Shown here: positions 56,734-64,000 of the stretch, piece after piece | How the letters are laid out: each line of letters starts with the position of its first letter | How positions within the stretch are numbered: position 1 is the stretch's first letter | Assembly: GCA_963760795.1 (NCBI GenBank) | Contig: CAVXEP010000012.1 | Location: 32,001-96,000 of the forward strand | Source of the DNA: an uncultured delta proteobacterium | GTDB taxonomy: Bacteria; Desulfobacterota; Binatia; UBA9968 | DNA length: 64,000 nt | Direction: 5' to 3' | Notes under the pieces: model-generated | What the model was told of the DNA's origin: nothing | Seen by the model: only the letters and a program-made list of their open reading frames with translations | Databases searched by the model: none | Program-made: the position numbers and the translations under genes

Positions 56734-57426
56734 TCATCCCCGCGGCCCAAAGAGCGCCGTGCCGATGCGCACGATAGTCGCGCCCTCTTCGATCGCCACG
56801 GTAAAGTCGTGGGTCATGCCCATGGACAACTCTTTAAGACGCACGTGGGGTAAATTCAGTGAATTGAGCGAGTCGCGCAACTCGCGCAGCTCGCGAAAGT
56901 ACGGCCGCACCTCTTCCAGATTCTCGCGAAACGGCGGCACGGTCATCAGCCCTTGGACTCTCACGTGGGCCAAACCGGAAAGCTTTTCTAACAAGCCAGC
57001 GACTTCAGCTTTGGCAATCCCAGACTTACTCTCCTCACCCGCCAGATTTACTTCGATAAGCGCACGCACAATCTTGCTTCGTTTCGCCGCCTCTTTGTCC
57101 AATTCCCGCGCCAGCGCCAAATTATCCAACGACTCGACGACGTCGAACAACTGCACCGCCAGCTTGGCCTTATTGCGTTGCAAATGGCCGATCAGATGCC
57201 ACTCGACCTTGGCTTGCGCCAATAGGTTCTTCTTCTCCTGCGCCTCTTGGACGTAATTCTCACCGACCAGCGCCACTCCCGCCGCCAGCGCAGCGCGGAG
57301 CGAATCCACCGGCTGCGACTTCGAAGCCGCCAGCAGCCGAACCTCGCGCGCATTCCGCCCCACCTTCGCCGTCGCAACAGCAATGCGCTCAACAATCGCC
57401 CGATAGTTCGCCCCGACATCGATCAT
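56734..57426 (-). CDS. yggS: PLP homeostasis protein
   Basis: AASKS, GENYVQE, WHLIGHLQRNK, LSMGMTHD, VRIGTALFG. Confidence 0.96.
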   Translation of the reverse strand: MIDVGANYRAIVERIAVATAKVGRNAREVRLLAASKSQPVDSLRAALAAGVALVGENYVQEAQEKKNLLAQAKVEWHLIGHLQRNKAKLAVQLFDVVESLDNLALARELDKEAAKRSKIVRALIEVNLAGEESKSGIAKAEVAGLLEKLSGLAHVRVQGLMTVPPFRENLEEVRPYFRELRELRDSLNSLNLPHVRLKELSMGMTHDFTVAIEEGATIVRIGTALFGPRG

Positions 57427-58143: not shown

Positions 58144-61100
58144 ATGAGAAGTAGAGTCATGTTGAAGACCAACAGTAATCGGCATAGCGTCCTCCTAGCT
58201 TCAACGAAAATAACCCCCATCCTCGCGACTCTCCTGATATCGATTGTGTTGGGACCCATCGCTTTTTTGCCAAATGCTCATGCGCAAATTACCTTCAACG
58301 ATCCTGGCTTTATGTCCGAAACCGTCGCAACGCTGCCGCCTTACACTCCGATAGGGCTTACCTTTGCTTCGGACGGTCGCATCTTCATCTGGCAGAAAAG
58401 CGGCGTGGTGCAAATCGTAAAAAACGGTGCCTTGCTGCCTACGCCGTTTCTCGACATCCAATCGCATGTCAATCAATGTGGTGATCGGGGTCTCTTGGGA
58501 CTCGCCCTCGACCCGGCCTTTGTAAACAATGGATACGTTTATCTTCTGTATACTTTAGAAACAGGCGGCGATCCTAACGACTGCGGTCCGAAAACTTCCC
58601 AGCTCACTAGGGTCAGCACCGATCCTGCGAACCTTGACGCGGCTCTTCCAGTCAGTGAGGTGGTTATACTGGGCGATCTGCCTTCCGAAGCGGAATATCA
58701 CTCTATTGGAACAATTCGTTTCGCGCCTGATGGCAAGTTATTCGTGGGTGTTGGCGATGCGGCATCTGCCGCTTTCGTGGATCCACAAGCCCTGCGGGCA
58801 CAGGATCTGAACAGCTTGGCTGGCAAGATTCTGCGCATCAATTCAGACGGCACCTCTCCGGCTAATAATCCCTTTTACAATGGCACAAACTCGAACCGCT
58901 CGAAGGTCTGGGCCTACGGGTTACGCAACCCGTATCGCTTTAGCTTACATCCCGTCAGCGGCGAACCTTATATCGCTGACGTTGGCTGGAATTCAAAAGA
59001 GGAGATTAATCGCGGACGCGGCAAAAACTTCGGCTGGCCTTGCTATGAGGGTGCCCTCCCTCAGCCACAGTACCAGGCGGCGTTCCAGCAATGCCGGGCG
59101 CTTCGGCAGAGCGCCGTTACCGGGCCACTTTACGAGTACGACTCTAGCATGGGTAAGACCGTGATCGCCGGGCCGGTTTACACATCGATTCTCTACCCGC
59201 CCCAATATCATGGAAACTTCTTCTTTGCCGACTACGTCTCGAAGTGGATCGACCGGATGGTTCTCGACGCTAACCAAAACGTCATCACTATCACTAGATT
59301 TGCGACTAGTGTTGACGGTCCCGTGAGCGTTGAGATGGGACCTGACGGAATGATCTATTATGTCGCTATTGAGAGCGGGATTGTTGGGCGTATTCGTTAC
59401 GTCGGCCCTCAGCAACCGCCTCTTGTCAATGCGAATGCTGCGACAACATCGGGCTACTCTCCACTGGTAGTAAACTTCTCCAGCGCCGGCTCCGCTGATC
59501 CGGAGAATGGCCCGCTGGTCTTCTTTTGGGACTTTGGTGATGGCACGACCTCTACAGCGCCTAATCCGCAGCATGCTTACGTGGGTGGAGGCGTAGTTAG
59601 TTTTACCGCTACACTTACGGTCACTGATATCTCTGGACTTAGCTCCACTGACAGCGTCAAGATTACGGTCGGAAGCCGTCCGCCGGCGGCAACGATATTG
59701 ACTCCTACCGCGGGGACGTTCGTGGTTCCGGGTCAGACGATAAATTTTGAGGGGGCCGCCACCGATCCCGACGACGGTATTTTGCTACCGGCGGCGCTCA
59801 GCTGGACGGTTTTGCTGCAACACAACGAGCATGTTCATCCGCAGATGAACGAAATAGGTGCCGGCGGCAGCTTTGTTGCGACGAACCACGGTGTTGGAAA
59901 CTTCGGGTTCAAGATCATTCTCACGGCAACAGATAGTAGCGGTCTAACGAGTTCTCAAGCCATCTTTTTGCCGATGCCACCCGTGGGCAAACCGGACGTG
60001 GTGGCCGCCTACAGTTTCAATGAGGGCGTTGGAAACACCATCAACGACGCGTCAGGCAATGGCAATCACGGCACCATCGTAAGCGCCGCTTGGGTCTCAG
60101 GGCGCTATAGCGATGCGCTGGATTCTGACGGTTCTGGGGATTTTATTGTCGTGCCTGACAACCCGACGTTGGATCTCGGTAATACGGGAACCATCGAGGC
60201 ATGGGTGCTGCCAGCGCGCCTCGACCAATGGCAGGGAATAATTGCAAAGGGTAATGCGTCCCTTAATTATGCTCTGGGAATCACTGAAACGAATCTAGCG
60301 GTGTGCAGATTGGGTAACATCCCAACGCAATTAGCGGTCCTCTCGACTACTCCCATTTTCAGCGGCGTGTTCCAGCATTTGGCTTGCTCCTGGGACGGCA
60401 CGACGTTGGCTCTTTATATCAACGCTATCCTAAACAACTCATTAGCCCAGACCATAGTGCCAGCAGCCAACGCAGCGCCGCTTTACATAGGACAATTTGC
60501 GGCGAACACGGATCGCTTCGATGGAGTTATCGACGAGGTGAGGATTTATAATCGCGCCTTGAGTCAAGCGGAAATCAATTTCGACATGAATACACCGATC
60601 ATCGACGTTGACAATCAGTCACCGACATCACCCACAAGATTGACGGCCAGGGCGGCAAGCAGCAGCCGGATTAATTTAAACTGGGCGGTGGCTTGGGACA
60701 ATGTGGCCGTGAGCCATTACCGAGTGGAACGCTGCCTGGGCCTGGGCTGTAGCAACTTCGGCCACATCGCCACTGCTACGGTAACCAGTTTCAACGATAC
60801 AGGCTTGGCAGCATCGACGCCTTTTAGATACCGGGTGCGAGCCAGCGACGCTTCGGGAAACCTGAGCGGGTATTCAAATGTAATCACGGGCAGAACGAGT
60901 GCACCGGATCGGCAACCGCCGAGCGCACCCCGTAGATTAACCGCCGCGGCGGTTAATACAGGCCAAATTGATTTGAGCTGGCTCCCATCCATCGACAACG
61001 TGGGGGTTACTGAATATCAGATAGAACGATGTCAGGGCCTAAGATGCAGCACGTTCGCCCAAATCGCGACCGTAGCCGTCGTCAATCTCAGTGACGTCGG

Positions 61101-61200
61101 CCTGCCGAGCTCAACCAGCTTCGCTTATCGCATACGCGCCGTAGATGCGTTGGGCAACCGCAGTCTTTACTCTAATCGAGTGACCGTATCGACTCCGTAG
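58144..61200 (+). CDS. Secreted PQQ-dependent sugar (glucose/sorbosone) dehydrogenase-like protein with PKD, LamG and two FN3 domains
   Basis: Signal peptide ending AHA-Q; DRGLLGLALDP, GKILRI, AYGLRNPYRF, DVGW, NFGWP; WDFGDG (PKD); FDGVIDEVRIYNRALS (LamG); two YRVRA/YRIRA FN3 repeats. Confidence 0.85.
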   Translation: MRSRVMLKTNSNRHSVLLASTKITPILATLLISIVLGPIAFLPNAHAQITFNDPGFMSETVATLPPYTPIGLTFASDGRIFIWQKSGVVQIVKNGALLPTPFLDIQSHVNQCGDRGLLGLALDPAFVNNGYVYLLYTLETGGDPNDCGPKTSQLTRVSTDPANLDAALPVSEVVILGDLPSEAEYHSIGTIRFAPDGKLFVGVGDAASAAFVDPQALRAQDLNSLAGKILRINSDGTSPANNPFYNGTNSNRSKVWAYGLRNPYRFSLHPVSGEPYIADVGWNSKEEINRGRGKNFGWPCYEGALPQPQYQAAFQQCRALRQSAVTGPLYEYDSSMGKTVIAGPVYTSILYPPQYHGNFFFADYVSKWIDRMVLDANQNVITITRFATSVDGPVSVEMGPDGMIYYVAIESGIVGRIRYVGPQQPPLVNANAATTSGYSPLVVNFSSAGSADPENGPLVFFWDFGDGTTSTAPNPQHAYVGGGVVSFTATLTVTDISGLSSTDSVKITVGSRPPAATILTPTAGTFVVPGQTINFEGAATDPDDGILLPAALSWTVLLQHNEHVHPQMNEIGAGGSFVATNHGVGNFGFKIILTATDSSGLTSSQAIFLPMPPVGKPDVVAAYSFNEGVGNTINDASGNGNHGTIVSAAWVSGRYSDALDSDGSGDFIVVPDNPTLDLGNTGTIEAWVLPARLDQWQGIIAKGNASLNYALGITETNLAVCRLGNIPTQLAVLSTTPIFSGVFQHLACSWDGTTLALYINAILNNSLAQTIVPAANAAPLYIGQFAANTDRFDGVIDEVRIYNRALSQAEINFDMNTPIIDVDNQSPTSPTRLTARAASSSRINLNWAVAWDNVAVSHYRVERCLGLGCSNFGHIATATVTSFNDTGLAASTPFRYRVRASDASGNLSGYSNVITGRTSAPDRQPPSAPRRLTAAAVNTGQIDLSWLPSIDNVGVTEYQIERCQGLRCSTFAQIATVAVVNLSDVGLPSSTSFAYRIRAVDALGNRSLYSNRVTVSTP

Positions 61201-61515
61201 TTCCTATTGCTGATGGTATTAAAGAGATCTACCATCAAAACTTGCAGGTAGCCGGGTCGGTCCGTTCATTCAGGCTTGCACTCCGGACTTTGTCCAGTCA
61301 GTGGACCAGCGTCCTCGATCTCGCGCACAATCTTTGACCCCAACCTTCTATCTGAGACACTCATGGGCAAGCACCTGGAGCATGCCCGATTCCACGACGC
61401 TCGACGACTTGGCAATCCTACGATTAGAAGAAGAAAATTAAATTGATTTACGCGACGCTTGCGTTGAACCCTGTTAGTTCCTGAAGTAAAACCGCTGCAC
61501 GGAGGATCATGATTT

Positions 61516-62307
61516 ATGCCATTCCAATATCTCCCCGTCATGGCGCAAAACTCCGCGCCGAAACTGCCGCGCGTGCTGGTGTCACCGACAAAACCAGCCT
61601 GGTGTCCGATTGCGAAACCGTTGAGTGAATCGCGCGTCGCGCTACTGAGCAGCGCGGCGTTGCGCCTGGCCGATCAGGAGCCGTTCATTCCACGTGAAGA
61701 TTTCAATTATCGGCGCGTGCCGTCCGACCCGAGCGCGGGAGAGATCGTCATCGATCATCATTCCGGCATCGGCCGGGTGCCCAAGCAGGACCCGGAGATT
61801 GTTTTTCCGCGCACGGCGTTGGCGAATCTGCACAAGCGCGGGGTCGTCGGTAGCTTGGCACCGTTTCACTATTCCTTCATGGGCGGTTTGCGCGGTCATG
61901 GCAAGATTGAAAACGAGCTGGCGCCAGCCATCGCCAACGACTTGAAGCAAGCGCAGGTCGATCTCGCTCTGCTCGTGCCCTATTGACCCTTCTGTCATGA
62001 GACCGTCGGTCTCATCGCCCATGTCATCGAAGGCCACGGGATTCCGACCCTGATGATCGGCACGGCCCACGACATCATGAGCAAAGTCACGCCGCCGCGC
62101 GCGCTGTTTGTCGATCATCCGGTGGGCCGCACCTTCGGCCCACCCCATGACAGCGCCCGCAACCAAGCGGTGCTCGCCCGCGCGCTCGAAGAGCTGCCCA
62201 AGTTCACGCGCGCTGGCGAAATCCGCGACCCCGGCTTCCAATGGTTGTCGGATGGCAGCCGCATTTGGGAAGATGAGCTACGCGCTGAGATGCGCCACGA
62301 CCACTGA
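61516..62307 (+). CDS. Selenoprotein, PrdB/GrdB (proline/glycine reductase selenoprotein B)-like, 263 aa with Sec at TGA 61984-61986
   Basis: ORFs 61516-61986 and 62053-62307 share a frame; read-through gives LALLVPY-U-PFCHETVGLIAHVIEGHGIPT...PPRALFVDHPVG; N-terminal KPLSESRVALLSSAA...DPEIVFP...YSFMG; GGAGG RBS. Confidence 0.88.
61997..62015 (+). promoter_or_regulatory. Putative bacterial SECIS hairpin
   Basis: ATGAGACC-GTC-GGTCTCAT perfect 8-bp stem; apical G(U) 19 nt after the UGA. Confidence 0.7.
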
Positions 62308-62459
62308 ATGCAAACCACTCGGAAGTCTTCCCCTTCAAGCGCGGCTTAGCAAAGACTCCAAGTCTGGGTGCTTACCCGCCTGTTGACTGCTCAACCGAAT
62401 CGGCTTAACTGGAGCGACAATGAGCTTCGCCGGAGACCCTAACAAGAAACATAATCACT

Positions 62460-63140
62460 TTGGTAGATCAGTCACTTAATGTCGTGACCTGGGACAATTT
62501 GCGCGCATATTTAACAAACTCTTCCCCGACCCACTCTGGTCATTCTGCACGGCGGCGCAGTGCGAGTTTATTGCTGTCCTTTGGCATCTCCCTGCCGCTG
62601 GGGTTCGATTCTCAATTGAGCCCTGAAAATGGTTGGGATAGGAAAGGCGCCGCGATCCCAAGATTAACCGCCTCAGGCAAACCCGCTAAGGTTGATCCCC
62701 GACAAGAAATAGCAAATAATATCCTCTTGGCGCATGTACCTCAAGATCGCGTTGGCATTGGAATCCCATTTGCCGGCAGAGACTTCGAGCCGCAAGACCC
62801 AAAACCTGCCGCTGACGAGCCAGCCCTCATTGCTCCGGAAATTTATCAGAAGGCGAAGGCCCTGGGCTCGGTCCGCGTGATTGTCGAATTACGCTTAGCG
62901 CCGCATAGAGAAGATTCCGAATCGTCTCGGGAAGATGCTATTCGCACGGCACAAAAAGCGCTCCTTGATGAGCTAGCCCAGGTAAACCTTCGAGTTATCC
63001 GAAACTATTCTTCGATTCCAGCCATTGTGCTGGCAGCATCCGTCGATGCACTCAAGATAATTGCCGCGTCCCGTCACGTGACAGGCGTAACTGAGGACGG
63101 TCTATCGATCCCGTTAAAACCATTAGGAGCCTGCAAATAA
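62460..63140 (+). CDS. Protein with stand-alone subtilase prodomain (inhibitor I9-like); start uncertain
   Basis: C-terminal QKAKALGSVRVIVEL...RVIRNYSSIPAIVL...VTGVTEDGLSIPL resembles the prodomain of the next gene; no catalytic domain. Confidence 0.6.
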   Translation: MVDQSLNVVTWDNLRAYLTNSSPTHSGHSARRRSASLLLSFGISLPLGFDSQLSPENGWDRKGAAIPRLTASGKPAKVDPRQEIANNILLAHVPQDRVGIGIPFAGRDFEPQDPKPAADEPALIAPEIYQKAKALGSVRVIVELRLAPHREDSESSREDAIRTAQKALLDELAQVNLRVIRNYSSIPAIVLAASVDALKIIAASRHVTGVTEDGLSIPLKPLGACK

Positions 63141-63171
63141 ACGCATGCCTGTCTGCTTGAGGGAGCACACC

Positions 63172-64000
63172 ATGATTATCCGATCACTTTTGCCTAGGCT
63201 TCTTGCGGCCGTTTTATTCATCCAGTTTTTGCTCCTCCCCGCTGGAATGGTCAGCGGGGCGGCCTCCTTTACGGCCCCACAGGGCTTAATTCAAAAGGCA
63301 CAGCACCAGGGAACCGTCCGAGTCATCGTCCGGCTTTACACGCCGCCAACTACCGAATCCGACATTGAGAGCGACCTAGAGCGCGCTAGCCGCCGCAGAA
63401 ATATTGACTTCGCTCGCGCCTCTACGCGAGCTAGCTTGTCGCACTTGCCGCACCGGGTCATTCATGAGTTTCAAGATTTTCCATTTATGGCGCTCAGTCT
63501 CACCCCAGAGGGACTTCAAGCCTTAGAATCCCTCCGCGGCGTCGTCACCGAAGTCTTAGAGGATCAACTCAACACACCATTACTCGGCGAAAGCGTCCCG
63601 CTGGTGCAAGCGGACCAGGCGTGGGCGGGCGGATTCGCTGGACTCAACTTGGACGGCACCGGCACCGTCATCGCGATACTCGATACGGGTGTGGACAAGA
63701 GTCACGCATTCCTCAGTGGCAAAGTCATCGCCGAAGCGTGTTTTTCATCTAATGATTCGAATCAATCGGCCACGAGTGTGTGCCCCGGCGGCGCTGAGAT
63801 GTCCACAGCGACCGGATCGGGTGTACCTTGTAACGCCAACGGCTGTGACCATGGCACTCACGTGGCCGGCATCGCAGCAGGCGGATCCACCACACCAGGA
63901 TCGGGAGTCGCGCCGGGCGCAGGGATCATGGCGATCCAGGTTTTTAGCCAATTTTCGGACGCGTTTCTCTGCCTGTTGAGCGGCGATCCTCCGCCGTGCG
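63172..64000 (+). CDS. Secreted S8 (subtilisin-like) serine protease, runs off window
   Basis: Manual translation from ATG 63172 after GAGGGAG: signal peptide, prodomain, IAILDTGVD (Asp), HGTHVAGIAAG (His), GVAPGA. Confidence 0.92.
   Translation, partial: MIIRSLLPRLLAAVLFIQFLLLPAGMVSGAASFTAPQGLIQKAQHQGTVRVIVRLYTPPTTESDIESDLERASRRRNIDFARASTRASLSHLPHRVIHEFQDFPFMALSLTPEGLQALESLRGVVTEVLEDQLNTPLLGESVPLVQADQAWAGGFAGLNLDGTGTVIAILDTGVDKSHAFLSGKVIAEACFSSNDSNQSATSVCPGGAEMSTATGSGVPCNANGCDHGTHVAGIAAGGSTTPGSGVAPGAGIMAIQVFSQFSDAFLCLLSGDPPPC

Follow-up and report, generated by a model that had tools for sequence, protein, structure and literature searches.

The described systems closest to the gene reported here are the D-proline reductase of clostridia and the GrdB, GrdF and GrdH proteins. 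In the accessible part of one account, the pyruvoyl group of PrdA binds proline, the selenolate of PrdB attacks the alpha-carbon, and a cysteine of PrdB cleaves the selenoether to leave a selenide-sulfide which is reduced by PrdC (PMC3091704). The accessible text of another source treats the enzyme, with its UxxC motif, as an established selenoprotein (PMC13188914). Going by the parts available of two marine surveys, the Sargasso Sea data of 2005 held 42 PrdB genes with UxxC as against one GrdA and one GrdB (PMC1088965), and the GOS data of 2008 held 235 PrdB selenoproteins in 38 samples along with 110 Cys homologues (PMC2398784). The PrdB-like UxxC family has thus been known since 2005 and, as far as these texts go, was among the commonest marine-metagenome selenoproteins in both years. 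The survey family resembles the soil branch treated here by description, namely in a PrdB-like sequence, a UxxC motif and an in-frame UGA with a SECIS element outside the clostridia, but the accessible text describes it as proline reductase and does not discuss the lack of PrdA. A literature search that reached a minority of subscription journals returned no paper on PrdB-like proteins lacking PrdA and none that gives such partner-less proteins a function; they are likewise untreated in the accessible text of three further sources (bioRxiv 2022.07.06.499078; PMC9751293; PMC6778437).

The present gene lies near the end of a window of 64,000 nt, the whole stretch of DNA analysed (positions 32001-96000 of contig C12), in a 6.58-Mb assembly that is 88.9% complete and 6.2% contaminated. 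A first open reading frame of 156 aa (61516-61986) ends in a TGA, beyond which the frame stays open until a second TGA at 62305-62307; the read-through product of 263 aa reads LLVPY-U157-PFC160-HETVGLIAHVIEGHGIP around the selenocysteine. The initial annotation had described two same-frame ORFs split by this one TGA and had expected gene callers to divide the gene. Both points hold, the frame being continuous and 119 of the 120 best database matches being N-terminal halves of 148–156 aa, many of which JGI names proline reductase PrdB. The start codon is backed by orthologues with an MP(F/L)(Q/E)YL N-terminus (Table 1). A promoter scan returned three promoter-like sites where 0.9 were expected, one of them on the plus strand (61409-61438, 9/12 matches). 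No plus-strand terminator was found by a scan of the gene region, and an Rfam search of 61100-62800 gave no match.

Table 1. Features of the selenoprotein gene and its surroundings, in window coordinates.
Feature	Position	Strand	Basis
Single CDS, 263-aa PrdB-like selenoprotein, U157-x-x-C160	61516..62307	+	TIGR04483 match spanning the TGA, orthologue conservation
Shine-Dalgarno-like GGAGG, 10 nt 5' of ATG 61516	61501..61505	+	Sequence; putative function
In-frame UGA, selenocysteine U157	61984..61986	+	TGA kept in homologues; Cys in Alpha/Betaproteobacterial relatives
Cys160 codon, putative resolving cysteine, start of predicted helix 160-173	61993..61995	+	Alignment, model
In-frame bacterial SECIS hairpin, 8 bp, loop GUC	61997..62015	+	Pairing conservation, criteria of PMC13188914
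Codons H81...D92-P-E94...F97-P98, branch-altered segment	61756..61809	+	Alignment, tree
IEGHGIP motif, residues 171-177	62026..62046	+	Sequence; E172 near-invariant across the wider family
yggS-like PLP-binding protein gene, usual divergent upstream neighbour, here split off by an insert	56734..57426	-	Pfam Ala_racemase_N on the L059 orthologue; name yggS presumed
Secreted GSDH/PKD/LamG/FN3 protein, local insertion	58144..61200	+	Pfam; not beside the gene in L059, L060, L061
S8 subtilase, runs off the window; inserted before the usual TctC-type neighbours	63145..63999	+	Pfam, relatives' loci

The two reading frames almost certainly constitute a single gene, in which SelB and tRNA-Sec recode the UGA to selenocysteine via the in-frame hairpin. 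Among metagenome orthologues, retrieved by patterns from the N-terminal half alone, the TGA is present and followed by PFCHE in all of the best 80 of 272; it lies exactly at column 157 in the 30 best class loci (30/30) and is kept in ten out of ten further genomes. The protein finds a match in 76 of 151 genomes of the class, each listed match having the in-frame TGA, and SelB occurs in all 76 of these genomes, whereas none of the 37 genomes without SelB has a match, kin among them not being independent. Downstream of the TGA, the same 80 orthologues show synonymous changes in 0.29/0.28 of codons and non-synonymous changes in 0.10/0.23, compared with 0.36 and 0.19 upstream; the DNA 3' of the TGA evolves as coding sequence. 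The selenocysteine machinery that the initial annotation had asked after is all there: a profile search places selA, selB and a Sec-type selD above their cut-offs on contig C11, and tRNA-Sec lies on C13. The three genes are clustered (L023, L024 and L027, C11:1948-7514), and selD itself contains an in-frame TGA. The concern that TGA might stand for TGC or TGT is answered by contigs from two runs of two studies (X5, X6), which span the codon with four differences each and none at 61984-86, although either run could be the source sample itself. Short contigs from two RNA-library runs cover the gene in part (X15 and X16, 11 and 13 of 30 bins), which does not imply transcription.

Cysteine takes the place of selenocysteine in Alpha- and Betaproteobacterial relatives, which make up most of the best 80 of 527 confirmed Cys-form loci. 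These orphan PrdB-like proteins, found in Bradyrhizobium, Rhodopseudomonas, Sulfitobacter and others, share the domain and have a CPVCH motif; their recurrent neighbour families (clustered and partly annotated) include no GrdE or PrdA, and the neighbours at the best 80 loci mostly mirror Bradyrhizobium synteny. Unlike the target, they have Cys for Sec, are ~50 aa longer, fall into a separate tree clade and share ~30–38% identity with it. Across 94 distant full-length library proteins the column holds C in 71, S in nine, G in six, T in two and W in two. The expectation of Sec or Cys at this position therefore stands for the orthologues and most distant proteins but not throughout, and some members of the family are not dithiol enzymes. 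In the same 94 proteins D92, P98, E172 and R195 are more conserved than either cysteine; in alignment A3, Cys160 is invariant, and its resolving role would follow from that of the PrdB cysteine, as given in the accessible part of PMC3091704. The full-length database homologue P0002 has W at the selenocysteine column, probably a TGA taken as Trp by the gene caller; a further W directly after the point where the orthologues stop fits this reading.

The apical-G hairpin noted just 3' of the TGA proved to be a well-formed SECIS candidate. It consists of ATGAGACC/GTC/GGTCTCAT, with eight perfect pairs and a 3-nt loop that opens with G62005 followed by U, 18 nt from the UGA. According to the accessible text of PMC13188914, the bacterial consensus has a loop of 3–9 nt, a stem of 4–16 bp, G in the first two loop positions, a distance of 16–37 nt from the UGA and an MFE of at most -7.5, and the present values (3, 8, G first, 18 nt and -11.6 kcal/mol) all lie within it. 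The 36-nt hairpin stretch reaches this MFE with z -2.71, 4 of 200 shuffles being as good, and wider stretches of 57 and 96 nt fold no better than shuffles (z -0.50 and -0.92). As a chance control, of the genome's 4559 frames that end in TGA and run to 150 codons or more, 44 have a hairpin of eight or more pairs in that distance window, a rate of ~1% with real selenoproteins counted in. Over 26 distinct sequences, 96.6% of stem cells are paired, compared with 12–42% in control registers slid by one to three columns, and seven or eight of the eight pairs are kept in 77 of the best 80 of 272 metagenome orthologues. Double-sided changes occur at three of the eight pairs (G-C/C-G, A-U/U-A and U-A/C-G), and they represent few events because most of them separate two clades. 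The stem is coding sequence as well; nevertheless, its 3' partners fall on third codon positions and change in step with amino-acid replacements encoded on the 5' side (HETVGL vs HQSVGL).

The kinship with PrdB and GrdB proposed from the U-x-x-C motif is borne out across the whole domain. The best NCBIfam model is TIGR04483 PrdB (125 bits, E 3e-36, residues 24-237 against model positions 16-228 of 238); its curated cut-off of 300 is not reached, whereas the true PrdB P0166 scores 453 bits. The models for GrdB, GrdF and GrdH give 26–31 bits (E 1e-7 to 3e-6), PF07355 gives 17.6 bits, below its cut-off of 22, and the UGSC model (NF041046/PF24696) does not match the target. In the genome this last model finds three other loci (L080-L082, at C13:27733-28152, C16:39826-40260 and C7:151121-151522), each with one in-frame TGA. 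By its sequence, the protein is accordingly PrdB-like and not PrdB. Compared with clostridial PrdB, it is similar in length (263 vs ~241 aa), in the position of Sec (157 vs 152 in C. sticklandii, in the accessible part of PMC3091704) and in the UxxC motif, and the true PrdB aligns with it free of gaps at 29% identity over 199 aa. It differs in reading UPFCH where PrdB has CGTCH and H-H-S-G-I-G where PrdB has H-G-G-F-D, and in lying below the equivalog cut-off and outside a prd operon, without PrdA or PrdC, in a host with haem-copper oxidases. GrdB, GrdF and GrdH (PF07355, TIGR01917/01918, NF040794/5; ~430 aa) are homologous to it in their C-terminal, Sec-bearing half, but the target has neither their N-terminal ~200 residues nor the second Cys of UxxCxxC (UPFCHET).

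The 136 rows assembled for a FastTree tree, of which three gappy ones were dropped to leave 133, comprised 23 proteins of the class, those library proteins that reach 225 aa, one in eight of the Cys loci, the C-termini of the GrdB proteins of this genome, P0002 and a paralogue from G011. In this tree the target groups with proteins of its order (support 1.0), a clade nested in a group (0.945) that replaces H-x-x-[YF]-D, the motif shared by GrdB, PrdB and the class's other branch; at this place, from H81, the target has H-H-S-G-I-G. At the position of its E94, N is found in 77 of the 94 library proteins, and the E172 column holds E in 93 of 94. The target is best classed as a further member of a selenoprotein family catalogued long ago, set apart by a minor motif change specific to its branch. 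Distant relatives comprise 3361 representative clusters at E<=0.001. Among 8000 candidates scored, a search for fused forms gave one long match, P0122, whose tail resembles frameshift read-through. A branch of ~380–420 aa (P0151, P0157, P0185, P0188, P0215 and others) joins a PrdB-like N-terminus to a ~170-aa C-terminal domain without a Pfam match, and library proteins include one or two fusions each with AMP-binding (P0183, P0210), HTH (P0136) and kinase (P0243) domains; the fusions and the ~390-aa form occur in other branches and give no functional lead for that of the target. A second PrdB-like Sec gene (UPACH; L077:5632-6510, G011:C40) belongs to a sister branch without H-x-x-[YF]-D and adjoins a GST gene; among library proteins, those nearest to it have Cys.

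An AlphaFold model from 23 sequences (pLDDT 88.8, pTM 0.90) predicts a single alpha/beta domain with U157 and C160 between strand 150-154 and helix 160-173. No solved structure of the family was found by PDB sequence search (one spurious match, E 0.011), by Foldseek on the model (nothing at E<=0.001) or by VIA, whose best match (Z 8.4, rmsd 4.1, 142 aligned) is to LacI/periplasmic-binding-type and Rossmann-like domains and is level with unrelated rows; a thioredoxin fold is not among the best 50 VIA matches listed.

No GrdE-type gene adjoins the target in the window, in line with the initial annotation, which had seen no prdA or grdE beside it. Its larger claim, an enzyme standing outside the Stickland complexes, is supported by co-occurrence across genomes, with the correction that this genome has Grd genes on other contigs, comprising five GrdB-like Sec genes, seven GrdE-like loci, a GrdA with TGA and GrdC-beta. 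GrdD, PrdA and PrdC were not found above their cut-offs in this genome (88.9% complete), the best PrdC score being 46.7 against 490 bits. The five GrdB-like genes (L002-L006, at C4:155575-156789, C4:122396-123739, C13:9941-11308, C20:125260-126585 and C1:107007-108329) each lie beside a GrdE-like gene and lack the usual UxxCxxC, reading UGTCTRS, UGTCSRS, UGTSTRS (twice) and UGTGTRS. In the GrdE-like loci (C1:108446, C4:118580, C4:120988, C4:156798, C7:96546, C13:11418 and C20:123960), aligned without canonical GrdE, the ~20 residues before the N-x-P motif, where we take the pyruvoyl-forming cysteine to lie, contain no cysteine. One GrdB-like, two GrdE-like and one TctC-type gene (C4:155454-158103, C7:96417-97725 and C12:97435-98455) each run over two frames, and these splits are probably frameshifts of the long-read assembly.

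Across the class, PrdA above cut-off occurs in none of 151 genomes and the GrdE/PrdA-type family PF09338 in 16; among the 71 genomes with a strong PrdB-like match (E<=1.5e-15; five weak cross-matches to GrdB are excluded), PF09338 gave no match in 62. The target orthologue is single-copy in 78 of the 123 genomes of the order, where PF09338 is found in 99 genomes with up to 12 matches each, and 71 of the 78 orthologue-bearing genomes carry GrdE-like (PF09338) genes. The other seven (G178, G230, G232 and G236-G239; 84–99% complete, six of them at least 92%, and six from one genus) have no PF09338, GrdA or GrdB match: the GrdA search, positive in the target's own genome as a control, gave none in the seven, and two weak GrdB matches there are the target orthologue itself. 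SelB is present in six of the seven, and in all six genomes fetched the TGA and the hairpin are kept, among unrelated neighbours. The gene is therefore retained without any Grd or Prd subunit in at least two genera, unlike GrdB/GrdF/GrdH it persists where GrdA, GrdB and GrdE are missing, and its stand-alone status is supported. It very probably represents a PrdB-like branch of the GrdB/PrdB family that does not need PrdA, GrdE or GrdA. In G230 and G232, two of these genomes (L243:3069-4337 and L244:4811-6076 in gene-oriented coordinates), a ~420-aa protein with an N-terminal CxxCxxCxxxCP Fe-S motif is encoded ~80 nt downstream on the same strand, a possible electron partner.

The secreted enzymes that had been named as neighbours are indeed present in the window but are not conserved. 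The gene at 58144-61200, placed between the yggS-like gene and the selenoprotein gene, encodes 1018 aa with a glucose/sorbosone-dehydrogenase-type beta-propeller, PKD, LamG and two FN3 domains. A plus-strand ORF at 62460-63140, without a Pfam match, resembles by eye, in its C-terminal part, the N-terminal prodomain region of the subtilase that follows it (VRVIVxL...R) and is possibly a stand-alone propeptide-like gene. The secreted neighbours are local insertions, uninformative on function, and they were ruled out as partners. What is conserved around the gene is instead a yggS-like gene, upstream and divergent, and, downstream, genes for TctC-type binding proteins. Among metagenome loci with at least 600 nt of flank, the yggS-like gene is the nearest upstream gene in 32 of 55 and a TctC-type gene the nearest downstream, on the same strand, in 27 of 44; a Pfam TctC match at E<=1e-6 was obtained for one of the four proteins tested, and BLAST clustering joins the remaining three to it. 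Within the genus, TctC-type genes follow 70–143 nt downstream in L059-L061, and the yggS-like gene is divergent upstream in L059 and L061. In the present genome the same TctC pair lies just past the window (C12:97435-99513). In other genera of the order the neighbours are of amidohydrolase, cupin, VOC, TPP or Mo-hydroxylase type, and the gene lies 2–35 nt behind either an amidohydrolase gene or a cupin gene with a VOC gene. In sister branches, GST, Tpx-like redoxin, MAPEG, glutaredoxin or DsbA-like genes occur within ~3 kb in 6 of 12 loci, a count made without background control on neighbours that a crude composition filter had called; luciferase-like monooxygenases occur there in 3 of the 12.

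With the PrdB half intact, PrdA and PrdC missing and three matches to haem-copper oxidase subunit I in the host, we infer a solo selenol/thiol oxidoreductase acting on a small molecule, a reading that we hold at about an even chance. The soluble cytoplasmic alpha/beta protein would present U157-x-x-C160 at a helix N-terminus, and the selenolate of U157 would attack a small molecule that is oxidised or electrophilic, with an O-O, S-O or S-S bond as the likeliest site; reduction of such a bond is the most economical reading, and may or may not prove right in equal measure. Cys160 would then free the product, leaving a selenenyl-sulfide to be re-reduced by general thiol reductants of the thioredoxin or glutaredoxin type. 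The chemistry would be the PrdB half-reaction minus the pyruvoyl partner that binds and activates proline, on a substrate needing no Schiff-base activation. The thiol-redox genes near half of the sister-branch loci speak for this, and GrdB itself is reportedly a peroxidase, to go by the title of a 2007 paper by Grobe and co-workers. Against it weigh the absence of such neighbours from all nine loci examined in the target's own branch and the GrdE-like genes in most orthologue-bearing genomes. The own-branch neighbours (TctC-type, amidohydrolases, cupin, VOC, TPP and Mo enzymes) point rather to catabolism.

Such a catabolic role could be that of a pyruvoyl-independent, selenium-dependent reductive lyase, a possible but less likely function. 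Sec157 might, with similar reserve, displace the leaving group from an activated quaternary amine, sulfonium, thioether or alpha-substituted carbonyl; displacement at the alpha-carbon as in GrdB and PrdB, of a substrate delivered by the neighbouring TctC-type binding proteins, is put forward equally tentatively. Betaine reductase, for its part, works without a pyruvoyl group. The lyase would keep the known chemistry of the family, as the accessible part of one source presents it (PMC3091704), and is favoured by the TctC-type genes downstream, by the closely spaced amidohydrolase or cupin and VOC genes upstream in other genera, and by the branch-specific H81-E94 change, which may reflect a specific pocket. 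However, TctC adjacency is weak evidence in a genome so rich in TctC-like genes (114 tblastn HSPs at E<1e-10), the neighbours vary from one genus to another, the six genomes fetched without Grd genes have unrelated ones, and the loci compared yielded no catabolic partner or electron donor that is conserved. It seems doubtful, if conceivable, that the order-specific branch (78/123 genomes) is a pyruvoyl-free and partner-free selenoenzyme performing GrdB/PrdB-type reductive cleavage of a TctC-imported substrate in oxygen-respiring soil bacteria.

It is improbable that the protein serves as a short B subunit pairing in trans with a spare GrdE-like protein (C4:118580 or C7:96546) and feeding the lineage's GrdA/GrdC system. 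The surplus of GrdE-like loci over GrdB-like genes (seven vs five), the presence of GrdA and GrdC-beta and the PF09338 matches in 71 of 78 orthologue-bearing genomes would fit such pairing; yet PF09338 is common in the order anyway, seven genomes keep the gene intact without GrdA, GrdB or GrdE, and no GrdE-like gene occurs among the called neighbours in 21 loci or the recurrent neighbour families of 80 metagenome loci. The database name given to many of the N-terminal fragments, a true D-proline reductase PrdB, is very unlikely to be right: TIGR04483 is the best NCBIfam model, the alignment to true PrdB is gap-free and JGI uses the name for many matches, but the score falls far short of the cut-off, no class genome has PrdA, this genome has no PrdC above cut-off, and both HGG[FY]D and D-x-N have changed. 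The alternatives of a sequencing error, a pseudogene or a pair of separate genes, in favour of which the W in P0002 and a separate ATG ORF that can be drawn at 62053 might be adduced, can be dismissed with near certainty in view of the TGA in 80 of 80, 30 of 30 and 10 of 10 homologues and in contigs of two studies, the hairpin covariation and the lack of any match in SelB-lacking genomes.

For annotation, the gene is one that callers cut in two across a common soil-bacterial lineage, its fragments often being labelled "D-proline reductase", a name made doubtful by the missing PrdA and PrdC. The question of function is family-wide, concerning a selenoprotein among the most abundant of the ocean surveys and thousands of distant relatives, and the genomes without Grd and Prd, together with the Cys forms that occur naturally in the culturable Bradyrhizobium and Rhodopseudomonas, make it accessible to ordinary knockouts and assays. 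If the tentative catabolic reading were true, Stickland-type selenium chemistry would have been reused in aerobic catabolism by one polypeptide.
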